Part shown: one piece after another, positions 2,781 through 18,092 of the stretch | Position numbering within the stretch: the stretch's first letter is position 1 | Layout of the letters: each line of letters begins with the position of its first letter | Virus record (IMG/VR): IMGVR_UViG_3300045988_024225 | From: a virus | DNA length: 18,092 nt | Direction: 5' to 3' (one strand) | Notes under the pieces: generated by a model | Seen by the model: the letters and a program-made list of their open reading frames with translations, nothing else | What the model was told of the DNA's origin: nothing | Databases searched by the model: none | Made by a program: the position numbers and the translations under genes

Positions 2781-2789
2781 TGCTATAAT
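2781..2789 (+). promoter_or_regulatory. Extended -10 promoter box TGcTATAAT
   Basis: Perfect TGnTATAAT 4 nt after the stop of the SSB-like gene and about 70 nt upstream of the TP-candidate ATG. Confidence 0.5.
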
Positions 2790-2811
2790 AACGAGTAAGC
2801 GTTCGTTCATT

Positions 2812-2836
2812 GAGAGCACCCAATTTGGGTGCTCTC
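2812..2836 (+). promoter_or_regulatory. 5' leader hairpin (11-bp stem, 3-nt loop) with no U-tract
   Basis: GAGAGCACCCA att TGGGTGCTCTC. It lies between the 2781 box and the SD/ATG at 2861 and is followed by GCCATCTT, so it is not a classical terminator. Confidence 0.6.
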
Positions 2837-2860
2837 GCCATCTTAAAAGGGGTGCGAACT

Positions 2861-3826
2861 ATGTCCCGAAGCCGCAAACAGAAGCATGTCAAGGCACGTC
2901 AGGCCGCACAAGCCCGCGCCACACGCAACATCAAACAGCTCGGCGCTTACTCCCATTCGAATCTTGCTAAAACTGCAGACCAGCAACTAGTCAATATTGC
3001 GAAAACCTTAGGTAAGGAGTGGGAGCGGCAGAAGAAACAGGCCATAGCGGAAGCGAAGGCAACCCCATACCATGCCACCGCCGTGGAAAAGCCGACGAAA
3101 AAAGATTATCTGTTTGCCCAGCGCACACCCATCACGAACGCGCAAATTCAGGCGGAACCCGTAGCGAAACGGCGCAAACTCCTGCGGCAACAGCAACGGA
3201 AAATCAATGCGGCACGACGCAAAATCAACGAATGGAACAAAGAACAGGCCATGCTCCAGCGAAGCGTGTATGACCAGCGCGTGGCAGAACTTGAAGGCAC
3301 CACCGGCGAAGGTTTTGGACGCACTCAAATCATCCCATCAAAACTCACGGACTTTCTGCAAATGACCAATGTGCTCAGTGATGAAGCCTTCGTGCGAAGT
3401 CAATTGGAGAGCGGACACCGGAACGAATTGCGCGAACAGATGCACGATGTGGCCGAAATCCTAGGACTCCGTACGGAACAGAAACGCAAGTCGACTAAAA
3501 AGCGGAAGACGGATACTCGACCCGATTTGTATGATGATCATAATTGGCCGTCCTACATGAGTCGCGGACGCTACGAAATTTTCGAGAAAATTTTGGCAAC
3601 TACGCTCGGCTCGAAACGGCTAAAGCGGTTCCGTCAACTGTCAGCGGCGCAAAAACGCGCGTTTATTGAACAGACGGACGCTCCCCGAATCGTGTTTGAT
3701 TGGACGGTATATGACCCTGTTCGGCACGGTTTTACTTCGGTGTTCCGAGATAACAGCGAAGGGTATCAGCGCTCACGGCAGCAGTTTGACCGGTGGTTGA
3801 CGGAAGCTGGCGCACTGGAAAAGTAG
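2861..3826 (+). CDS. Candidate terminal protein (321 aa, very basic)
   Basis: ATG at 2861 (MSRSRKQKH...) follows AAAAGGGG. I prefer it to the 2810 start in the track, which lies inside the leader hairpin. The protein is Lys/Arg/Gln-rich and sits immediately upstream of the protein-primed polymerase, as phi29 gene 3 does relative to gene 2. The genome has ITRs. No sequence motif was recognised, so the call rests on position and composition. Confidence 0.5.
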   Translation: MSRSRKQKHVKARQAAQARATRNIKQLGAYSHSNLAKTADQQLVNIAKTLGKEWERQKKQAIAEAKATPYHATAVEKPTKKDYLFAQRTPITNAQIQAEPVAKRRKLLRQQQRKINAARRKINEWNKEQAMLQRSVYDQRVAELEGTTGEGFGRTQIIPSKLTDFLQMTNVLSDEAFVRSQLESGHRNELREQMHDVAEILGLRTEQKRKSTKKRKTDTRPDLYDDHNWPSYMSRGRYEIFEKILATTLGSKRLKRFRQLSAAQKRAFIEQTDAPRIVFDWTVYDPVRHGFTSVFRDNSEGYQRSRQQFDRWLTEAGALEK

Positions 3827-3853: not shown

Positions 3854-5305
3854 ATGACAGTGCAAGACAATAGGGTGGGATTATGGTGCGCGGATAACGT
3901 CATACGATTCACGGACGGAACAGCATTACGTGACATTACCGCCCCTAATCGCCTTTTGGCGTCCATCATGACGGGCGGCAAACTCACCATCTACGTGACT
4001 GACCCCGACATGTTAGACCCGTTCATGGCGCACGTCGTACACTCACTTCCCCATAACGAGCATAATGCTAATCTGAGCTGGGATGCCATCATCTCGAAAA
4101 AGGGCAAATTTTTCAGCTTCACGGCACGTATCGACCGTGAAAACTCGGCACGATTTTTTGACATATCGAATCTTTTACGGGAAAACTGCAGTCTCACCAT
4201 GACCGATACCCAGCTACTCAATATCCTACGTGAATACGATAATCGTGGCCTGTGCAAGATCACGGCGGGCGGTGCGAGCATGGAGGCGTTCGCCGCAGGT
4301 GAGTGGAAATGGTATTACGACAAATTCCCACAATTAGAATCCGAAACAAAAAAATCACTGCATGACGCCTATATCGGTGGATTCATGACCGCCAAAGAAG
4401 GTGTGTACGGCAAGGCTATCGACGTTGACTGCAATAGCATGTATCCGAGCATTCTGAGGGACGAATGGATCCCATGGGGCGAACCCGAACCGTACGAAGG
4501 CAAATACGAGGAAGATAGCGACATGCCCTTGCATTGTGACGAACTCACGTTTCGTGCGGAACTCAAACCAAACGGATACCCTTTTCTACTCGACAATCGC
4601 AGCGTCTACGGCTTGAATCGACTCACCTCAACCCGTGGCTATGTCACAAGAGTATTGACCGACATCGATCAACAACTACTGTATAACAATTACGAAGTGA
4701 GCGTCTACAAGCACGTACGCGGGTGGAAATTCCGGCAAAGCAAGGGCTTTTTCCGCTCGTTCGTAGACGAATGGGGAGAACTGAAACAGCGGGCGACGGG
4801 CGAACAACGGCAAATGGCCAAACTCATTATGAACGCTCTTGTAGGGAAAATGGCGAGTCTGCCCAAGGGTGCCGTCCTACTTCCCACCTCTAAAGACGGC
4901 ATCACATTGGACTGGGATGTGGCGCAACGTGAGGAATCGAATTTGAAAACCGATTTTCTCCCCGTGCCCGTATGGGTGAATGCTTATGCGCGTCGCAAAC
5001 TTATGGCCGTCTGTTATGCCAACTCGGATAGACTACTGTATGCGAACACGGACGGTTGCATATTGTCCGGCTGGGATCCGGTACGATCATGTGACATACA
5101 CCCGACCGAACTTGGAAAGTGGAAGATCGCCGCACGATACGAAAAATTGACTATCCTCGGAATGAACCGGTATCAAGGCTGGAGGGAAGACGGCGAAGTG
5201 GATGTATGCATGGCCGGAAACATGTTCTCACAGCCCATCCCCTACGAAAAGTTCAGGCATGGAACGCAAGTCATGGACGACTACGGAACAATGGTCATGC
5301 TATAA
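3854..5305 (+). CDS. Protein-primed family-B DNA polymerase (483 aa)
   Basis: Motif A DCNSMYPS (D192; nt 4427-4447), motif B KLIMNALVG (nt 4820-4846) and motif C YANTDG (nt 5039-5056). Long stretches match phi29 polymerase as I remember it: ITAGGASMEAF vs MTAGSDSLKGF, AYIGGF vs AYRGGF, PWGEPEPYEGKY vs PYGEPIVFEGKY, and FVDEWGELK...AKLIMNALVGKMAS vs FIDKWTYIK...AKLMLNSLYGKFAS. The A-B and B-C spacings (about 131 and 75 aa) leave room for TPR1/TPR2-type insertions. Confidence 0.9.
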   Translation: MTVQDNRVGLWCADNVIRFTDGTALRDITAPNRLLASIMTGGKLTIYVTDPDMLDPFMAHVVHSLPHNEHNANLSWDAIISKKGKFFSFTARIDRENSARFFDISNLLRENCSLTMTDTQLLNILREYDNRGLCKITAGGASMEAFAAGEWKWYYDKFPQLESETKKSLHDAYIGGFMTAKEGVYGKAIDVDCNSMYPSILRDEWIPWGEPEPYEGKYEEDSDMPLHCDELTFRAELKPNGYPFLLDNRSVYGLNRLTSTRGYVTRVLTDIDQQLLYNNYEVSVYKHVRGWKFRQSKGFFRSFVDEWGELKQRATGEQRQMAKLIMNALVGKMASLPKGAVLLPTSKDGITLDWDVAQREESNLKTDFLPVPVWVNAYARRKLMAVCYANSDRLLYANTDGCILSGWDPVRSCDIHPTELGKWKIAARYEKLTILGMNRYQGWREDGEVDVCMAGNMFSQPIPYEKFRHGTQVMDDYGTMVML

Positions 5306-5306
5306 T
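5298..5306 (+). promoter_or_regulatory. Extended -10 promoter box TGcTATAAT overlapping the polymerase stop codon
   Basis: Perfect TGnTATAAT, and the polymerase TAA (5303-5305) lies inside it. The predicted start near 5313 coincides with the first base of a long-range helix in the downstream non-coding RNA candidate. Confidence 0.45.
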
Positions 5307-5312
5307 GCCTAT

Positions 5313-5481
5313 TGTCTTCTGAGCGTCGATTTTCGACTGGGAGCAACACGGGTCGGACTGCCACGGCTGAGAATGTCGCCGACCGTGAACATCACTATCG
5401 TGGCGGTAGTGCCCTACGATTTTCAACTCGCGCTCACATAAGACAGTTTTGACCCCGCGTGATTGCGGGGTCATTTATTTT
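5313..5481 (+). ncRNA. Candidate structured small RNA of about 165-170 nt, pRNA-like in architecture
   Basis: No SD-preceded ORF. Bounded by the 5298 box and the terminator at 5451-5481. Hand fold: a closing helix 5313-5318/5440-5445 plus 5320-5325/5431-5436. Inside it are a hairpin at 5326-5336, a stem-loop at 5347-5356/5379-5387 and a hairpin at 5393-5399/5405-5411. GCCAC (5360-5364) is complementary to the loop GTGGC (5400-5404). Confidence 0.45.
5451..5481 (+). terminator. Rho-independent terminator
   Basis: GACCCCGC gtgatt GCGGGGTC followed by ATTTATTTT. Confidence 0.85.
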
Positions 5482-5490
5482 CCCGTCGCA

Positions 5491-5499
5491 TGATATAAT
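5491..5499 (+). promoter_or_regulatory. Extended -10 promoter box TGaTATAAT, likely the late/structural promoter
   Basis: Perfect TGnTATAAT 10 nt after the terminator U-tract and 36 nt upstream of the scaffold gene ATG. Confidence 0.6.
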
Positions 5500-5534
5500 T
5501 TTAGTGGAAATATTATCGATCATAAGGAGCTTGC

Positions 5535-5813
5535 ATGGCAGACCCAAACAATAACGACGAGGAAAACACTACCCCGCCGCCGACCGAAGAGGAACAGCAG
5601 ACCGAAACCGTGGATGATGAGGTCAAGCCGAAAGAACCGGAACCGGAACCGAAGCAGGAGCCGGACGTTTCCGCACGACTTGACAGCATCGAAAAGGAAT
5701 TGGCCGCACTCAAGGCCATGATGGACACACTCGGCTATAATGACCTCACCCCATCCGACGATGATAACGACGATGACGGTGACAACGAGTCCATCGAAGA
5801 TTTGTTCGACTAA
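5535..5813 (+). CDS. Putative scaffolding protein (92 aa, highly acidic)
   Basis: AAGGAG SD at 5524-5529. Sits immediately upstream of the major capsid gene, as phi29 gp7 (98 aa) does. Asp/Glu/Pro-rich ends flank a central helical segment (SARLDSIEKELAALKAMMDTL). The call rests on position and composition. Confidence 0.6.
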   Translation: MADPNNNDEENTTPPPTEEEQQTETVDDEVKPKEPEPEPKQEPDVSARLDSIEKELAALKAMMDTLGYNDLTPSDDDNDDDGDNESIEDLFD

Positions 5814-5833: not shown

Positions 5834-7555
5834 ATGTCCAATATTCGACCGTTGGCCTGTAAGGGGGACGTTGAGATTTTCAACGCCGTCCGAAACGCCA
5901 CCAGCCCCCAGTTCCAGACCCGTATCCCGTCTGCCACGCAGGGCAATATCCGCAACGCGGTAGACACCATGCGCAATTTCCCCTACCTGCGCGACGAATT
6001 CACGGGCGTGCTGATTCAGCGTCTCATCGGCCTGTACGTCCAGCACGCCGACTGGGATGACCCGCTCAAGCTGATCGGCTCCCCGCGCACCCTCAAGCGC
6101 TACGGTTCCACCTACGAACAGGCCGCCGTGGGTCTCGTCAAGGCCCGCACCCGCAACTTCAACAAAGAATATCTCGGGGATGATGTTTACGGGCGTTACT
6201 CGCTGCCGACTGCTTCGGTATTCCACCCCCTAACTTTCGACCATTATTACCCCGTCACCATTCCAGAAGACGCTCTGTTGACCGCGTTCGACGGCGAAAG
6301 CGGCATGTCGGATTACATCGCTGAAATCATGAACGCGCCCGTTCTCTCGGATAGAAACGATATGTACTTGATGAAGACACAGACCTTCGCGGAATACGCC
6401 CGTAAGGGCGGTTTCTACCGCGTGCATACCCCCGACGTTGGTAAGGCGGATTCCACGGAAGCTGACGCTAAGGGCTTGTTGCGCCTTATCCAGCAGGTGG
6501 CGAACGAGCTGAAGGCGTCTCCAATGTCGGCCATGCCGCGATATAATGCCATGTCGTGGGTGACTCCATGGCGCGACTCTGAAGCGATCTTGTTCGCTAC
6601 TCCGCAGGTGATTGCCGCGCTCAACGTGGAAGCTCTCGCCGCCGCCTTCAACATCGATAAGGTCAATGTTCCGTATCGCATCATTCCGATTCCAGAAGAT
6701 ATGTTCGGCATTGGCGGGCAGGGCGGCAAGGTACAGGCCGTCCTGACCACGGAAGATTTCTTTTTCTGCTGGGATGAGATGCTCGAAACCGCAAGTTCCC
6801 CCGTGAATCCGATTGACGGCACCCGCAACATCTTCTACAAGCACAGGGGCAGCATTACCCCGAATCCGTTCGCCAACGCTATTCTGTTCTGGACTGGAAA
6901 AGGCTCTACGCAGTCGGTAACATTGCCGGATACGCTTACTACGTCGAAACCAGTATTCGAGCTGAAAGTACAGAAATATGGTCAGCCCGCCATCACACCG
7001 CAGAATGTGGAACGTGGCGATTTGGTGCAGGTGGTGTCTACTATCGAAAGCGCTAATAAGGCTAAGGCGTCTTTCCAGCCGGTCGGTATTACATATGCCG
7101 TTGAGGGTGCATCTTCGCAGTTTACAGCTATCGACAATGACGGTATTTTGCGTTGCGGCCTTGACGAAACCGCCGAGTCCCTTAAAGTCACTGCTCAGGC
7201 AACCTATATCAACCCGGATACACCTGAAATCGACCAAACAATTTCCGCCGCACTGGACGTACCTGTCAAGGGCACTTGGGTGGGCGGCATCAAGATTGGC
7301 GCACTCAAGAGTCTGACAATTCTCCCGCCAAACCCGCCGAGTGTCAAGGTGGGTGAAAGTACGAAACTTACCGCTCAAGCGATCATGGCAGACGGTTCAA
7401 CCGTTGACGTAAGCAATCTTGCGACATGGGGCGTAGACAAGAACGCCACTGTCGATAAAACTGGAAAAGTCGTTGGTGCAAATGCCGGAGATGCAGTCGC
7501 TAGCGCGAAATTTGCAGGAGAAATAACGTACAAGACTGTGCACGTTGTCTTATGA
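5834..7555 (+). CDS. Major capsid protein, phi29 gp8-like, with C-terminal bacterial Ig-like (Big_2-type) domain (573 aa)
   Basis: The N-terminal half parallels phi29 gp8 as I remember it: IFNAVRNA...IPSAT..NI, DEFTGVLIQRLIGL, DPLK, EDALLTAF...YIAEIMNA....D.YLMK. The C-terminus LTILPPNPPSVKVGESTKLTAQAIMADGSTVDVSNLATWGVDKNATVDKTGKVVGANAGDAVASAKF is a typical Big_2 pattern. Synteny also fits. Confidence 0.85.
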   Translation: MSNIRPLACKGDVEIFNAVRNATSPQFQTRIPSATQGNIRNAVDTMRNFPYLRDEFTGVLIQRLIGLYVQHADWDDPLKLIGSPRTLKRYGSTYEQAAVGLVKARTRNFNKEYLGDDVYGRYSLPTASVFHPLTFDHYYPVTIPEDALLTAFDGESGMSDYIAEIMNAPVLSDRNDMYLMKTQTFAEYARKGGFYRVHTPDVGKADSTEADAKGLLRLIQQVANELKASPMSAMPRYNAMSWVTPWRDSEAILFATPQVIAALNVEALAAAFNIDKVNVPYRIIPIPEDMFGIGGQGGKVQAVLTTEDFFFCWDEMLETASSPVNPIDGTRNIFYKHRGSITPNPFANAILFWTGKGSTQSVTLPDTLTTSKPVFELKVQKYGQPAITPQNVERGDLVQVVSTIESANKAKASFQPVGITYAVEGASSQFTAIDNDGILRCGLDETAESLKVTAQATYINPDTPEIDQTISAALDVPVKGTWVGGIKIGALKSLTILPPNPPSVKVGESTKLTAQAIMADGSTVDVSNLATWGVDKNATVDKTGKVVGANAGDAVASAKFAGEITYKTVHVVL

Positions 7556-7561
7556 TATAAT
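7553..7561 (+). promoter_or_regulatory. Extended -10 box TGaTATAAT overlapping the capsid gene stop codon
   Basis: Perfect TGnTATAAT. The capsid TGA (7553-7555) forms its TGa. Confidence 0.45.
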
Positions 7562-9907: not shown

Positions 9908-10864
9908 ATGTTAAGGACGGTTATAGTGGGTAAACGCAATAATGCGCGCAAGGCGGCACACTGGGATAATCAGAGCGTGCTCGGATCCATGTGGGGCGAC
10001 TTGAATTTGCCTGAAATGCGGCAGTCCCTTCGTATCAACCAGTATATGAAGCTTATTGAAATGCTGGCCGTAAGCCGATTCAAATGGATCAACTTACCCT
10101 CATATATCGATGAAAGATATTTGGAACTCACCCTATTCGAGAATGGTTTAGCCCTCTTTTTTCCCGACAAACGTAAGGGCGTCAACCGTTTCATGGTCAC
10201 GTCCGGCAACATCGGGGGGGTGAACAACTACAACAATCCGACCAGTTTTCAGCCCGTCGCCACGAACTACTCGCACCCCCAGATTGGCTCGAAGAAATGC
10301 GTACCCATTTGGGACAACCAGCTCAGGTGCACTATGGTCGATGTCATGTGGAACTACGCCGCGCGATTGGCTATTGCAGACCGCGCTTTGGACGTGAATT
10401 TGGACAATATTTCGGTGCCGTTGATTATCGCCACGTCTGAAACCAACAAACTCACCGCCCAAAATTTGATGAAGGCACGCGAGGATGGTGACCCATACGT
10501 GTACGCCTACGACTCGGCGGACATTACCGGCATGTTTCAGACTTTCCCCAACATGACCCCCTTTTTGGCGGATAAAATTATCACCACAAAAACACAGATT
10601 TGGAATGAGCTCGTAAACTACTTGGGCATTGACAATTCGGCCGCGGAAAAGAAGGAGCGGTTGCTTGAATCGGAAGTGACTGCAGGAAACTCTCGTACGA
10701 ACGTGTTCCGCCTGAGCTATTTGAAGGCGCGGCAACAGGCGTGCGATACGATCAACCGATTGTGGCCGCAAATGGCCGACTCTGGATACCCCATCGGCAT
10801 TGAATGGAATGACACCACGTCCGGTGGTTTGCTGGACGTGGAAGGCAATAAGGAGGAAGACTAA
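9908..10864 (+). CDS. Head-tail connector (portal / upper collar), phi29 gp10-like (318 aa)
   Basis: [23 protein letters not shown] matches phi29 [49 protein letters not shown] matches [26 protein letters not shown], and [12 protein letters not shown] matches REEACEKINELY. The length matches gp10 (309 aa). The ATG at 9908 has no SD. An alternative GTG at 9926 follows AAGGA. Confidence 0.9.
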   Translation: [318 protein letters not shown]

Positions 10865-12876: not shown

Positions 12877-14421
12877 ATGGCTACAGTGTACACGAAAACC
12901 GACAATTACGGTTTGAACCTCTACGGAGACAATGATCCTGCAGACCTACGCGACGGATATAACGGGTCCATGCGCACCATTGATACAACTTTGAAAACCC
13001 ATTTGAATCGTATCGAGGGGGTGGAAGCGCGGGAAACCCATGACGAGGAAGTGGTTAAAGCACTGCTTGGCGATAACACGGTGGATAGCGCTACCACTGC
13101 GAAAGCCAAGTGGGATAAGTCAAGCACGGACGCCACTACCGCCAACAGCAAGGCCAATGCAAACACGGCAATTCTCGCCGCATTGGGTGCAAATTCTGCT
13201 GTCGACGCCGCCGCCGCGAAAACCAAGTGGAACGACGCGGCAACTACCGCCACTGGCAACAATCACGCATTGGTTGCGCTCGGGAGCGAAACCACTGACA
13301 AGGCGGACGCCAATAAGGGTAAGTGGGATACCGCCGCCACTACCGCCACCGGCAACAATCAGGCATTGATCGCGCTCGGAAGCAATACCGTCGCCACTGC
13401 CTCTGCCAATAAAACCAAGTGGGATAAAGCTTCTTCGGACGCTACCGCCGCACTCAATGCGGTCAACACGCCAAATAAACTCAAGGACTACGTTGTAGTG
13501 CTGGGCGATAGCTGGGTTGATGGATATTATGGTGGCGCGAAGCATATCGACCAGTCGCCCGCCGTCGCCATTCGGGAAAAACTTTCCCCGCAACGCTTCT
13601 TCTACAAGGGATCCTCGGGTGGAGGTTTCGCCGCGTCCGGTGATGATGGCACGTTTGCGAACATTTGGGATACCGTACCGGATAAAAGCAAAGTGACGGC
13701 CGTTATCATCATCGGCGGGCAGAATGACGCCAATGGCAACATTGACGAAGGTACGGTTATGAGCAATGCCCGTAGCCTTATGGAAACCATTCACGCGGAA
13801 GCGCCGAACGCCGACATTCACGTTTGCCCCATGGTGCTAGCGGTCGGCCAGACATTGACCAGAAAGCAGAATCACGGTACCTCAAGGGCTGCCCGGCTAG
13901 GCATTTACCGCGTATTGACCCTCAATTTAAAGGATATCGGATTCGATTATATCCATGTGCATGAGGGCGGATATCGCATCGGCGTGGTAGCCTCCCAAGC
14001 GGAGGATGGGGGCGACGGTGGCGACGGTGCGCACCTCAGTCGTGCAGGATACATATTGGCCGGATACTGGATAGCGTCCTGTGTGGCCACAGATAGTGAC
14101 CTATGGCCGACCAACTACGGCAACCCGGATGACAGTCAGATCAGCGGTACTTGGAATTATGTCAACATTTATGAATGCGGCGGCATGTTGCATGTAAACT
14201 ACAAGTGCGAATACAATGTGAAACCGGCTAACGGAAACCGTATTTTCAAGCTCCCGAAATGGGCGACGGTCGGCGATGCACAATATTATCGCAGCTACCA
14301 CACCGGCTCAGATGGATATTTTATCGCCATCGATGGCGATACTATTTCTATCCAAGGATGCGACGGAATGGCGGCTACTGGACTTATAACCGATGCCTTC
14401 ACCATTCCATCAGGGTTCTGA
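12877..14421 (+). CDS. Tail fibre/appendage protein with SGNH (GDSL-type) esterase domain (514 aa)
   Basis: ATG at 12877 lies 9 nt after AAGGA. The track's TTG at 12868 is an alternative start. N-terminal anchor motif NYGLNLYGDNDPADLRDGYNGSMRTIDTTLKT, then four repeats of about 32 aa. SGNH blocks are present: GDS (13504-13512), GGQND (13714-13728) and DGAH (14023-14034). Confidence 0.8.
   Translation: MATVYTKTDNYGLNLYGDNDPADLRDGYNGSMRTIDTTLKTHLNRIEGVEARETHDEEVVKALLGDNTVDSATTAKAKWDKSSTDATTANSKANANTAILAALGANSAVDAAAAKTKWNDAATTATGNNHALVALGSETTDKADANKGKWDTAATTATGNNQALIALGSNTVATASANKTKWDKASSDATAALNAVNTPNKLKDYVVVLGDSWVDGYYGGAKHIDQSPAVAIREKLSPQRFFYKGSSGGGFAASGDDGTFANIWDTVPDKSKVTAVIIIGGQNDANGNIDEGTVMSNARSLMETIHAEAPNADIHVCPMVLAVGQTLTRKQNHGTSRAARLGIYRVLTLNLKDIGFDYIHVHEGGYRIGVVASQAEDGGDGGDGAHLSRAGYILAGYWIASCVATDSDLWPTNYGNPDDSQISGTWNYVNIYECGGMLHVNYKCEYNVKPANGNRIFKLPKWATVGDAQYYRSYHTGSDGYFIAIDGDTISIQGCDGMAATGLITDAFTIPSGF
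13063..13470 (+). repeat. Imperfect tandem repeats inside the fibre gene (4 units; 96-nt period for the last three)
   Basis: Protein units have the form LG(S/A)x(T/S)..A.(K/N)(T/G)KW(D/N).A.TTATGNN.AL(V/I)A. The DNA segments near 13243 and 13339 are near-identical (ACTACCGCCACYGGCAACAATCASGCATTG). Confidence 0.8.
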
Positions 14422-15673: not shown

Positions 15674-15682
15674 TGATATAAT
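15674..15682 (+). promoter_or_regulatory. Extended -10 promoter box TGaTATAAT
   Basis: Perfect TGnTATAAT 3 nt after the tail-lysin stop and 104 nt upstream of the ATPase ATG. Confidence 0.5.
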
Positions 15683-15785: not shown

Positions 15786-16853
15786 ATGGCATTACAGACA
15801 TTGGCTGAAGATGATTACTACGACTTGCATAATCTGCTTACCCGTAACGCCCCGTGGAATTTCGTGATCGGCGCACGCGGCCTAGGCAAAACGTTTGCCG
15901 CAAAACGGTATGGAATCAAAGAATATATCAAACACGGTCACGAGTTCATTTATCTCAGGCGTACGGACGTGGAACAGCACCGTAAGGAAACGTTTTTCAA
16001 AGACATTCAAGAATTCTTTCCACAATACGAATTTCGTGTAAATGGTGAGAAAGGGCAGATTCATAAGACGTCATGGGACGAAAAGGATTGGCGCACCTGT
16101 TGCTATTTCGTCGCCCTTTCACAAGCGGGCGGCTTGAAATCAGTAGCCTATCCAAAAGTTCACTTGATTATTTTCGACGAAATTTTCCCCGACAACCTCA
16201 GGTTTTTAAGCAATGAGGTAAATTCGTTTTCCGAATTTTACAATACGGTCGACCGTTGGCAGGATAGGACAAAAGTACTGTTTCTGTCTAACGCAGTCCA
16301 GAAGGCTAACCCGTATTTCGCAAAATACCGTTTGGACATTGGATCCCAGCAAACCAACCAGCAACAGTACAAATTATATTGCGGGGGGTTCGTCTGTCTC
16401 GAATTGGCCGATTATGGCGGATTCTCAGCCAAAGTCGCACAATCAAAATTCGGCCGGTTCCTTGAACGGTACGACGGCGACTATGCGGACTACGCCATTC
16501 GTAACAAATTCCGCGACGAGTCAGACACGTTGTTAGCGCCTATACCGATCGACGGTGAACTCTCGTACATTTTGGACACTACCGATTACGCTCGTTTCGG
16601 TATTTGGGTTTCCGTGTCCGAACGGGACGGGCATGTTTCACAATATGTTTCACGACGTATTCCAAAAGACAACACTCGACCCGTCTACACACTAGACCCC
16701 AACCATGTCGACGAACACACTTGGTACGTCAAAAAATCAGATGATATCATACGACGGCTCACCACCGGCTATCGACTCGGTAAAATCCGTTTCGATGATT
16801 CACAAGTCAAAGCCGATTTTGGACTGATCATAGGCGAACTATTAGGCAAATAA
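15786..16853 (+). CDS. DNA encapsidation (packaging) ATPase, phi29 gp16-like (355 aa)
   Basis: NFVIGARGLGKTFA is almost identical to phi29 gp16 NFVIGARGIGKSYA (Walker A, nt 15870-15893). EFIYLRR matches QFIYVRR, Walker B is VHLIIFDEIF, and LSNAVQKANPYF matches LSNAVSVVNPYF. Confidence 0.92.
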   Translation: MALQTLAEDDYYDLHNLLTRNAPWNFVIGARGLGKTFAAKRYGIKEYIKHGHEFIYLRRTDVEQHRKETFFKDIQEFFPQYEFRVNGEKGQIHKTSWDEKDWRTCCYFVALSQAGGLKSVAYPKVHLIIFDEIFPDNLRFLSNEVNSFSEFYNTVDRWQDRTKVLFLSNAVQKANPYFAKYRLDIGSQQTNQQQYKLYCGGFVCLELADYGGFSAKVAQSKFGRFLERYDGDYADYAIRNKFRDESDTLLAPIPIDGELSYILDTTDYARFGIWVSVSERDGHVSQYVSRRIPKDNTRPVYTLDPNHVDEHTWYVKKSDDIIRRLTTGYRLGKIRFDDSQVKADFGLIIGELLGK

Positions 16854-16867
16854 GAAAGGATATACAT

Positions 16868-17239
16868 ATGACAATGACGGCAACAGACGTGTGGTGTGTG
16901 TTTGCAGTAGTCTTTTTTATTATTGTGGATTATGTGACAGGCATTGCAAAAGCCATACTTAACGACACATTGAGTTCACAGAAAATGCGACAAGGGTTAT
17001 GGCATAAGTTCGCCTATCTCATGCTTACCTTGGTAGCCTATTTCGTGGACATGATTAATCTGCATGTAGACCTCGGACTGCCGGTCAGCGTGTTCATGTG
17101 CACGGTCGGCGGTATTAGTCTCATTGAACTTACGTCGATTTTGGAAAACATTACCGCCATTAATCCCGAGCTAGCGGACGCCCCTTTTATGAGCGTGTTT
17201 GCTAATACCAATACCCCCAAGCACAAGAAGGAAAACTGA
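16868..17239 (+). CDS. Holin (phage_holin_4_1 / toxin-secretion holin type, 123 aa)
   Basis: Three hydrophobic segments. DYVTGIAKA ... SS.KM..GL.HK ... ELTSILEN is characteristic of this holin family. Sits immediately upstream of the endolysin. Confidence 0.8.
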   Translation: MTMTATDVWCVFAVVFFIIVDYVTGIAKAILNDTLSSQKMRQGLWHKFAYLMLTLVAYFVDMINLHVDLGLPVSVFMCTVGGISLIELTSILENITAINPELADAPFMSVFANTNTPKHKKEN

Positions 17240-17966: not shown

Positions 17967-17973
17967 TTACCTA

Positions 17974-18092
17974 TCACGCTTCCTCGAACGCTTCAATAAA
18001 ATCATCAGACGGAAACGAATCACAATCCTTATAACCCTCAATAGCCATATTATTAACCACCGCCACATGATACAGATTCTCAACAATCACAT
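17974..18092. repeat. Right inverted terminal repeat (119 bp)
   Basis: Exact reverse complement of 1-119. Confidence 0.95.

Follow-up and report, generated by a model that had tools for sequence, protein, structure and literature searches.

The prohead (or packaging) RNA (pRNA) of phage phi29 and its relatives is, by the literature found, the only RNA known to serve as an essential component of a viral DNA-packaging motor. A review from 2024 on phi29-like phages, which lists the Bifidobacterium phage BD811P1, calls pRNA unique to phi29 and related Bacillus phages (PMC11476376). A 2018 study, based on a covariance model built from the known pRNAs, found such RNAs only in Bacillus phages and not reliably in Streptococcus phage Cp-1, for which a pRNA proposal is mentioned in the same paper (PMC6266182). 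In addition, the GenBank record of Actinomyces phage Av-1 (L218) carries a 'packaging RNA' misc_RNA at 16295-16402, near the right end and overlapping the open reading frames (ORFs) B and C. Full-text literature searches returned no report of a pRNA in Bifidobacterium phages. Here we describe an element in an 18,092-base-pair (bp) stretch of viral DNA, IMG/VR record IMGVR_UViG_3300045988_024225 (the whole stretch is called the window in the following), which is the genome of a phi29-like Bifidobacterium phage. The interval 5313-5481 of the + strand, for which no annotation appears in the records or papers found, probably encodes a divergent pRNA; we assign to this reading a probability of roughly 0.75.

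An earlier note on this DNA, made by inspection, had proposed a pRNA-like gene in the gap behind the polymerase gene, with its own promoter and terminator and with two complementary loops. The elements that it named, namely the box at 5298-5306, the loops GCCAC (5360-64) and GUGGC (5400-04), the terminator and the second box at 5491-99, are all present where it had placed them. The resulting unit is composed as follows:

5298-5306, + strand: extended -10 box TGCTATAAT, overlapping the polymerase stop codon (5303-5305), with a predicted transcription start near 5313
5313-5481, + strand: predicted small RNA gene of about 165-169 nucleotides (nt), made up of a structured core, 5313-5446 (about 135 nt), and a terminator hairpin
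5450-5481, + strand: intrinsic terminator, with a 10-bp G+C-rich stem (5450-73), the loop UGAU and the tail UUUAUUUU
5491-5499, + strand: next extended -10 box TGATATAAT, conserved, the putative late promoter for a protein of 92 amino acids (aa) and the capsid genes

The box sequence TGNTATAAT occurs in five copies in the window (2781-2789, 5298-5306, 5491-5499, 7553-7561 and 15674-15682) against 0.63 expected. Every copy is on the + strand at a gene boundary, and the five boxes look like the promoter set of the phage. Inspection by eye revealed no -35 hexamer at the 5298 box, nor a recognisable one at any of the five. The 5298 box is kept in 52 homologues, with the adjacent wobble positions of the polymerase codons varying around it. 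At the other end of the unit, the terminator at 5450-73 ranks first among the terminator-like sites of the whole window, and its stem compensates in relatives, for example from CCCCGCG/CGCGGGG to CCCTCCG/CGGAGGG. On account of the TGNTATAAT boxes, the conservation of the 5298 copy and the promoters and terminator found in distant homologues (see below), a discrete small RNA is the most economical reading: 5298-5481 would be a self-contained unit of -10 box, structured RNA and terminator, giving rise to the predicted transcript.

Homologues of the element were collected through two 14-mer scans and one gapped-pattern scan of IMG/VR and through one metagenome scan, and the matches were filtered by blastn, nhmmer and a covariance model. 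Environmental samples contributed many chance matches to the metagenome pattern scan; the sequences kept were limited to those that passed nhmmer or our covariance model, R1. This led to about 106 distinct full-length copies, almost all of them from human-gut samples and on contigs of 17-19 kilobases. R1 recovers 100 distinct homologues at 82-155 bits, including cultured isolates, namely BP1, which grows on B. pseudocatenulatum, and BD811P1-3, which grow on B. dentium. Within the RNA interval the runs GAUUUUCGACUGGG, CGGCUGAGAAUG and GCCCUACGA are invariant, while wobble positions of the nearby polymerase gene are variable. The GenBank records of BP1 and BD811P1-3 leave the equivalent gap, about 230 nt, without any feature.

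The fold supported by these homologues is a long, interrupted A helix leading into a three-way junction that bears a C/E arm and a D hairpin, with the following parts:

5313-5341, + strand: 5' strand of the A helix, comprising A1 (5313-18), A2 (5320-25), A3 (5327-29), B1 (5333-35) and B2 (5339-41)
5347-5387, + strand: C/E arm, in which helix C (9 bp) pairs 5347-49 and 5351-56 with 5379-87, G5350 being bulged
5360-5364, + strand: R-loop equivalent GCCA(C), at the end of the C/E bulge and directly abutting helix E, complementary to 5400-04
5364-67/5375-78, + strand: hairpin E, CGGC-UGAGAAU-GUCG, 4 bp with the loop UGAGAAU
5393-5411, + strand: D hairpin, 7-bp stem (5393-99/5405-11) with the 5-nt loop GUGGC (5400-04), the L-loop equivalent
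5412-5445, + strand: 3' strand of the A helix, comprising B2 (5412-14), B1 (5417-19), A3 (5428-30), A2 (5431-36) and A1 (5440-45)

Specifically, the RNAfold minimum free energy (MFE) structure of 5313-5481 contains the closing helix, with a z-score of -3.9 and none of 200 shuffled sequences folding equally well; the core without the terminator has a z-score of -2.1. Covariation was counted on the 100 distinct sequences aligned to R1. Standard pairs are formed in 96.3% of the cells, and 26 of the 45 pairs show changes on both sides, compared with 3-10 such pairs and 34-49% pairing in controls in which the partner strand was slid; the observed values were matched in 0 of 500 shuffles. An earlier MAFFT alignment of 52 sequences gave an unchanged picture. 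A naive all-versus-all search for covarying columns was dropped in favour of these structure-specific counts and slid controls, because shared ancestry made it noisy. When given no structure, RNAalifold independently returned the helices A2, B1, B2, C, E and D, and the two short helices B1 (UCG 5333-35/CGA 5417-19) and B2 (GGG 5339-41/CCC 5412-14) prolong the A helix.

Compensatory changes are spread over most of these helices: they are found in A1, A2 and A3, at 7 of the 9 pairs of helix C, at all 7 pairs of helix D (99.9% of cells pairing) and at 1 of the 4 pairs of hairpin E (99.8% of cells pairing). B2 is uninformative in this respect, because it is invariant, and the invariant stretch GCCCUACGA falls in the 3' strand of the A helix. 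G.U pairs account for 283 of the 3200 cells in the helices counted, and therefore the + strand is the functional one. The bulge ACUGCCA (5357-63, 7 nt) lies on the 5' side of the C/E arm only. A direct repeat, CGAUUUUC(G/A)AC, was observed at 5327-5337 and 5418-5428, one copy on each strand of the A helix and both nearly invariant; it may form a symmetric internal loop or a protein-binding site, for instance for the packaging ATPase. Two computed helices were considered and rejected as parts of the conserved fold, namely the MFE inner helix 5332-38/5351-57, which accumulates mismatches across the homologues, and the centroid helix 5358-66/5398-5406, which clashes with helix D.

The hand-drawn fold of the earlier note is therefore closer to the conserved structure than the MFE fold is. 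Its closing helix (UGUCUU 5313-18/AAGACA 5440-45 and UGAGCG 5320-25/CGCUCA 5431-36) is present and recovered by the MFE fold, its 9-bp stem and 7-bp hairpin have strong covariation support, and the covariation among relatives that it had named as a check turned out to be abundant. Two details had to be redrawn. What had been described as a 22-nt apical region is really the 7-nt 5'-side bulge 5357-63 plus the 4-bp hairpin E. Moreover, a small hairpin placed at 5326-5336 is disfavoured, because its first pair becomes A.C in 12 of the 100 sequences, the very ones in which the competing pair 5325-5431 is A-U instead of G-C (overall, G-C in 86, A-U in 12 and G-U in 2). All together, these data make it nearly certain that a conserved, structured RNA gene exists at this locus.

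To compare this RNA with that of phi29, we used the Rfam model RF00044 (Phage_pRNA), built from the pRNAs of Bacillus phages, which as a control matches the left end of phi29 at 145 bits and yields the consensus structure. The two RNAs agree in the order and in much of the detail of their parts. In both, an A helix (with bulges in phi29 and with more interruptions in the window) opens into the junction through a 5' strand of 1 nt in phi29 and 5 nt in the window. Helix C consists of 5 bp, a 1-nt bulge in the 5' strand and 4 bp in phi29, and of 3 bp, the same type of bulge and 6 bp in the window. There follows a bulge confined to the 5' side, of 9 nt in phi29 (GAUUAAACC, ending AACC) and of 7 nt in the window (ending GCCA), and then a 4-bp E hairpin with a purine-rich loop, UUGAGU (6 nt) and UGAGAAU (7 nt), respectively. 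From E to the 3' strand of C there are 0 nt in both, the junction after C measures 3 nt (UUU) in phi29 and 5 nt in the window, and the D hairpin has 6 bp and the loop UGGUU, ending GGUU, in phi29, and 7 bp and the loop GUGGC, ending UGGC, in the window. From D to the A helix there are again 0 nt in both. In either RNA the C/E bulge and the 5-nt D loop each end in one of the two complementary tetranucleotides, and one descriptor script picks up both molecules. The window loops, GCCAC/GUGGC, are G+C-rich and can form up to 5 bp (-6.9 kcal/mol, versus -1.8 for AACC/GGUU in phi29).

The likeness extends to the genomes. Both RNAs have their own promoter (predicted in our case) and lie downstream of the polymerase end of the early genes, in small protein-primed podophages with a gp10-type connector and a gp16-type ATPase. 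The parallel in gene order drawn by the earlier note is roughly right, with the qualification that in phi29 gene 1 and small ORFs stand between the polymerase gene and the pRNA. Other features set the window RNA apart: its A helix carries the invariant GAUUUUCGACUGGG and GCCCUACGA and the direct repeat CGAUUUUC, unlike that of phi29, and its 3' end is a plain terminator hairpin, whereas the phi29 pRNA ends in domain II. The host also differs, being an actinobacterium, whereas the phi29 family (Salasmaviridae) consists of Bacillus phages.

In the window family the two loops do not merely match but change together. At 5360-5404, 81 sequences have G-C, 13 have G-U and 6 have A-U, and A.C is never seen (n = 100); the change of C5362 to U yields U.G in 6 sequences, and that of A5363 to G yields G.U in 2. 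The loop pairs found within the family are thus GCCA/UGGC and ACCA/UGGU, plus G.U intermediates. Since the sequences are related, this co-variation is suggestive and not decisive.

A stronger test of the complementarity is provided by the loops of distant clades. R1, which contains no loop-pairing term, picked out sites downstream of the polymerase gene, at low scores (13-18 bits), in phages with a polymerase of 25-30% identity to that of the window; one further case, L398, was found through a polymerase search and folding of its gap, and not through R1. The RNAs of these clades are neither annotated nor described so far:

MT835826 clade: bulge AGUACAA, then CGGC(GAAGA); D loop UUGU; loop pair ACAA/UUGU
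L398: loop pair GCCG/UGGC
L431 (2437-2553): bulge AUUGCUA, then CGG(GUGAUA); D loop AUUAGCA; loop pair UGCUA/UAGCA
L474 and L458 (2404-2519): bulge AUUGCCC, then UGG(GUGAAA); D loop GGGG; loop pair CCCU/GGGG
L220, 11173-11300, - strand: pRNA-like RNA downstream of the polymerase gene of an uncultured gut phi29-like phage

With random loops, at least four abutting base pairs between the two loops are expected by chance with a probability of about 0.02-0.09 per case, and in the MT835826 clade helix C covaries independently. A descriptor search adds L432 (GCCA/UGGC), L476 (GCUA/UAGC), L451 and L465 (ACCG or ACCA with UGGU) and L434 (UGCAA/UUGCA). In its permissive form the descriptor matches almost every locus, so that only a stricter form and the comparison of target with control are informative. 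As such a search can be biased, sites with the right architecture were compared irrespective of their loops. Loop complementarity was present at 12 of 67 architecture sites downstream of the polymerase gene and at 11 of 293 elsewhere (Fisher p = 1.7e-4, for loci that are not fully independent). Therefore, the two loops singled out in the earlier note change in concert within the family, and their complementarity persists, in other sequences, in distant clades.

The distant RNAs also resemble the window RNA in their flanks. A canonical promoter (TTGACA-17-TACAAT, -TATAAT or -TATATT) ends about 7 nt before the A helix in the MT835826 clade, L398 and L431; a terminator lies 3' of the RNA in L431, and a U-run follows the 3' strand of the A helix in L398. 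In the MT835826 clade this strand overlaps the called ATG of the next ORF, whose start codon may have been mis-called. Loci L220 and L388-L398, like L431, L474, L458, L432, L476, L451, L465 and L434, stand for uncultured gut phi29-like clades with RNAs downstream of the polymerase gene, promoter-preceded where examined, that have the same plan of C, bulge, E and D and complementary loop pairs of their own. Some clades carry, between the polymerase gene and the RNA, a 55-aa ORF that is absent from the window (L431, 2238-2405; L218, 4303-4470) and that, judged by eye, may encode a ribbon-helix-helix-type DNA-binding protein.

Several observations weigh against assigning the RNA to the packaging motor. 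RF00044 has no match in the window at its gathering score (100 bits), nor any at E-values up to 10 in 5250-5540 (291 nt). The model of the known pRNAs thus misses the RNA; among the computational checks named in the earlier note, this is the one that did not turn out in favour, and the note had in advance held such an outcome to be non-decisive; since RF00044 gives it no score, the window RNA stands outside that family as modelled and forms a new sequence family needing a model of its own (R1). Its junction exceeds that of phi29 in size, some of its single-stranded stretches are invariant, its A helix is interrupted by additional internal loops, and the RNA lies mid-genome, whereas the phi29 pRNA lies at the left genome end. 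Within the loops, the pair 5363-5401 is non-standard in 9 of 100 members (8 U.U, from GCCUC with GUGGC, and 1 A.C, from GCGGC), the pair 5364-5400 is C.A in 4 of 100 (G5400 to A), and within the close family a full double change occurs at one loop pair only, in sequences that are phylogenetically related. Finally, the complementarity of the loops reaches 9 nt, 5358-66 (CUGCCACGG) with 5398-5406 (UCGUGGCGG), and so takes in parts of helices E and D; in the thermodynamic centroid the two segments are paired in cis. The 9-nt complementarity could represent an alternative conformer or a longer contact between molecules, and it is possible that the loops pair inside one molecule, as a pseudoknot.

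This last point leads to the one serious rival, which we nevertheless judge improbable: a structured small RNA or 3' untranslated region element with another role, such as an early-to-late switch, mRNA stability or interference with the host, whose loops pair in cis and which plays no part in packaging. Cis pairing accounts for the loop complementarity equally well, and it is what the centroid returns for 5358-66 and 5398-5406, with flanking positions that are mostly compatible. The element is also found precisely where the early genes give way to the late ones, between a terminator and the late promoter, and the failure of the Rfam pRNA model to recognise it can be read in the same sense. However, the nested cis helix is incompatible with helix D, which has the covariation and pairing counts given above, and the point-by-point match to the phi29 pRNA would have to be a coincidence, though one confined to phages with the gp10/gp16 motor. 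Nor does any other RNA family claim the element: no Rfam family matches the window RNA at its gathering threshold, and the matches with E-values up to 10 are at chance level and driven by the terminator, with RF00044 absent among them.

Less probable still is a leader or antitermination element that acts in cis, like put or an attenuator, and that would modify RNA polymerase or switch its own conformation to allow read-through of the 5450-5481 terminator into the late genes. The order of promoter, structured RNA, strong terminator and late genes is the one expected of it, and a weak resemblance to the Leu leader, below threshold (17 bits, where the gathering score is 50), is due to the terminator alone. 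What makes such a role unlikely is that the late operon is served by a conserved extended -10 box of its own, right after the terminator. In addition, no alternative anti-terminator pairing is backed by covariation, and the distant homologues, which are either separate promoter-to-terminator units or overlap the start of the next ORF, do not share the arrangement.

The 22-codon ORF at 5373-5441, an ATG-to-TAA frame in the window that could specify a micropeptide and that the earlier note had named as the competing functional element, is effectively refuted: the ATG is missing in 35 of 100 homologues, the frame from it runs for 10, 11, 21 or 22 codons or finds no stop within the RNA core, its span is not a multiple of three in half of the members, variation is lower at third codon positions (entropy 0.40) than at first and second ones (0.56 and 0.58), and no Shine-Dalgarno sequence is seen by eye; conservation thus does not point to the ORF. 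Equally negligible is a trans-acting antisense RNA directed at the + strand message 17096-17116, in an ORF downstream of the ATPase gene, since the 18/21 complementarity of that site to 5372-92 has no counterpart (at least 17/21) in the complete genomes of BP1 or BD811P2 and involves a segment buried in helices E and C; it is probably due to chance.

The reading of the element as a pRNA draws further on the genome in which it is found. Inverted terminal repeats of 124 bp, at 1-124 and 17969-18092 and 98% complementary, identify the window as a complete linear genome of the protein-primed type, whose nearest relatives are the Bifidobacterium phages BP1 and BD811P1-3 and one human-faecal contig. 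It encodes a protein-primed type B polymerase (PF03175), a Phi29-type capsid protein (PF25622 Phi29_MCP) and a gp9-type tail knob, and, as the earlier note had recognised, the two proteins that act with pRNA in the phi29 motor:

9908-10864, + strand: gp10-type connector (portal) gene; PF05352 Phage_connector, E = 5e-39; phrog_2038
15786-16853, + strand: gp16-type DNA encapsidation ATPase gene; PF05894 Podovirus_Gp16, E = 1e-44; phrog_2150

The connector is the presumed docking partner of the RNA and the ATPase the presumed partner of its A helix. The connector has a basic N-terminus, MLRTVIVGKRNNARK, which is the sole hint consistent with binding of the RNA to the prohead or connector. The genes of the window are nearly all co-directional, and the RNA gene sits between the polymerase gene and those for a small acidic protein and the capsid. 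Upstream of the polymerase gene, immediately 5' of it, a 338-aa ORF (2810-3826) has no family match and is probably, judged from its position, the terminal protein. The first ORF after the RNA (92 aa, 5535-5813) encodes a very acidic, low-complexity protein, likewise with no family match and possibly a scaffold protein. The capsid protein (5834-7555) shows a C-terminal Big_2-like Ig domain that stays slightly below threshold (E = 4.6e-4).

On the packaging reading, the RNA would be transcribed from its own extended -10 promoter at the end of the polymerase gene, would stop at the intrinsic terminator and would fold into the three-way junction. The gp16-type ATPase would be borne by the long A helix (5313-41/5412-45), and the RNA would rest on the connector and prohead through its C/E arm and D hairpin. 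If phi29 is a guide, neighbouring molecules would be linked by pairing of the GCCA(C) bulge in one with the D loop (G)UGGC in the next, several copies would close into a ring on the prohead, packaging would require the RNA, and the RNA would depart once the DNA had been packaged.

Further phi29-like phages were also examined. R1 found nothing convincing in Av-1, BadAargau2 or MT835861, the model being too sequence-specific for such distances. In Av-1 it gave no match better than 10 bits (E 3.1), and the Rfam pRNA model lends no support to the annotated Av-1 packaging RNA. Downstream of the Av-1 polymerase gene (4303-4612), the 55-aa ORF mentioned above is followed by a promoter and a short structured RNA that ends in a strong terminator. 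BadAargau2 (L217), a phage of honeybee-gut Bifidobacterium, has after its polymerase gene a strongly folded RNA (13051-13229, - strand, -73.6 kcal/mol), whose closing helix is GUGAGCG/CGCUCAC and which also has an E-like hairpin, CGUA(UUAAGU)UACG, a loop of GUGGU and a terminator; the gap precedes the gene of a 124-aa protein located upstream of the capsid gene. A confident fit of the BadAargau2 RNA to the pRNA plan was not obtained, its loop complementarity being 3 bp at best. Av-1 and Cp-1 are likewise subjects of pRNA claims in phi29-like phages outside Bacillus, and the Av-1 host is also an actinobacterium. Those claims are single-sequence predictions, whereas the window RNA is backed by 100 sequences, covariation and co-varying loops.

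In conclusion, our data indicate that the RNA component of the phi29-type packaging motor probably also occurs outside the Bacillus phages. The hypothesis is directly testable, because cultured phages (BP1 and BD811P1-3) carry the RNA. If true, it would fix the annotation of a gap left empty in published Bifidobacterium phage genomes, and it would provide a natural series of loop-pair 'specificities' and supply RNA nanotechnology with new G+C-rich three-way junctions. Another question on which it would bear is whether pRNA is ancestral or a late invention. With somewhat less assurance than for the pRNA reading of this locus, we favour the former: the prohead RNA would be an ancestral and widespread part of the phi29-type motor, carried downstream of the polymerase gene by the phages of Bifidobacterium and by several other human-gut clades, in which the loop pair has been re-coded repeatedly while the architecture has stayed fixed.

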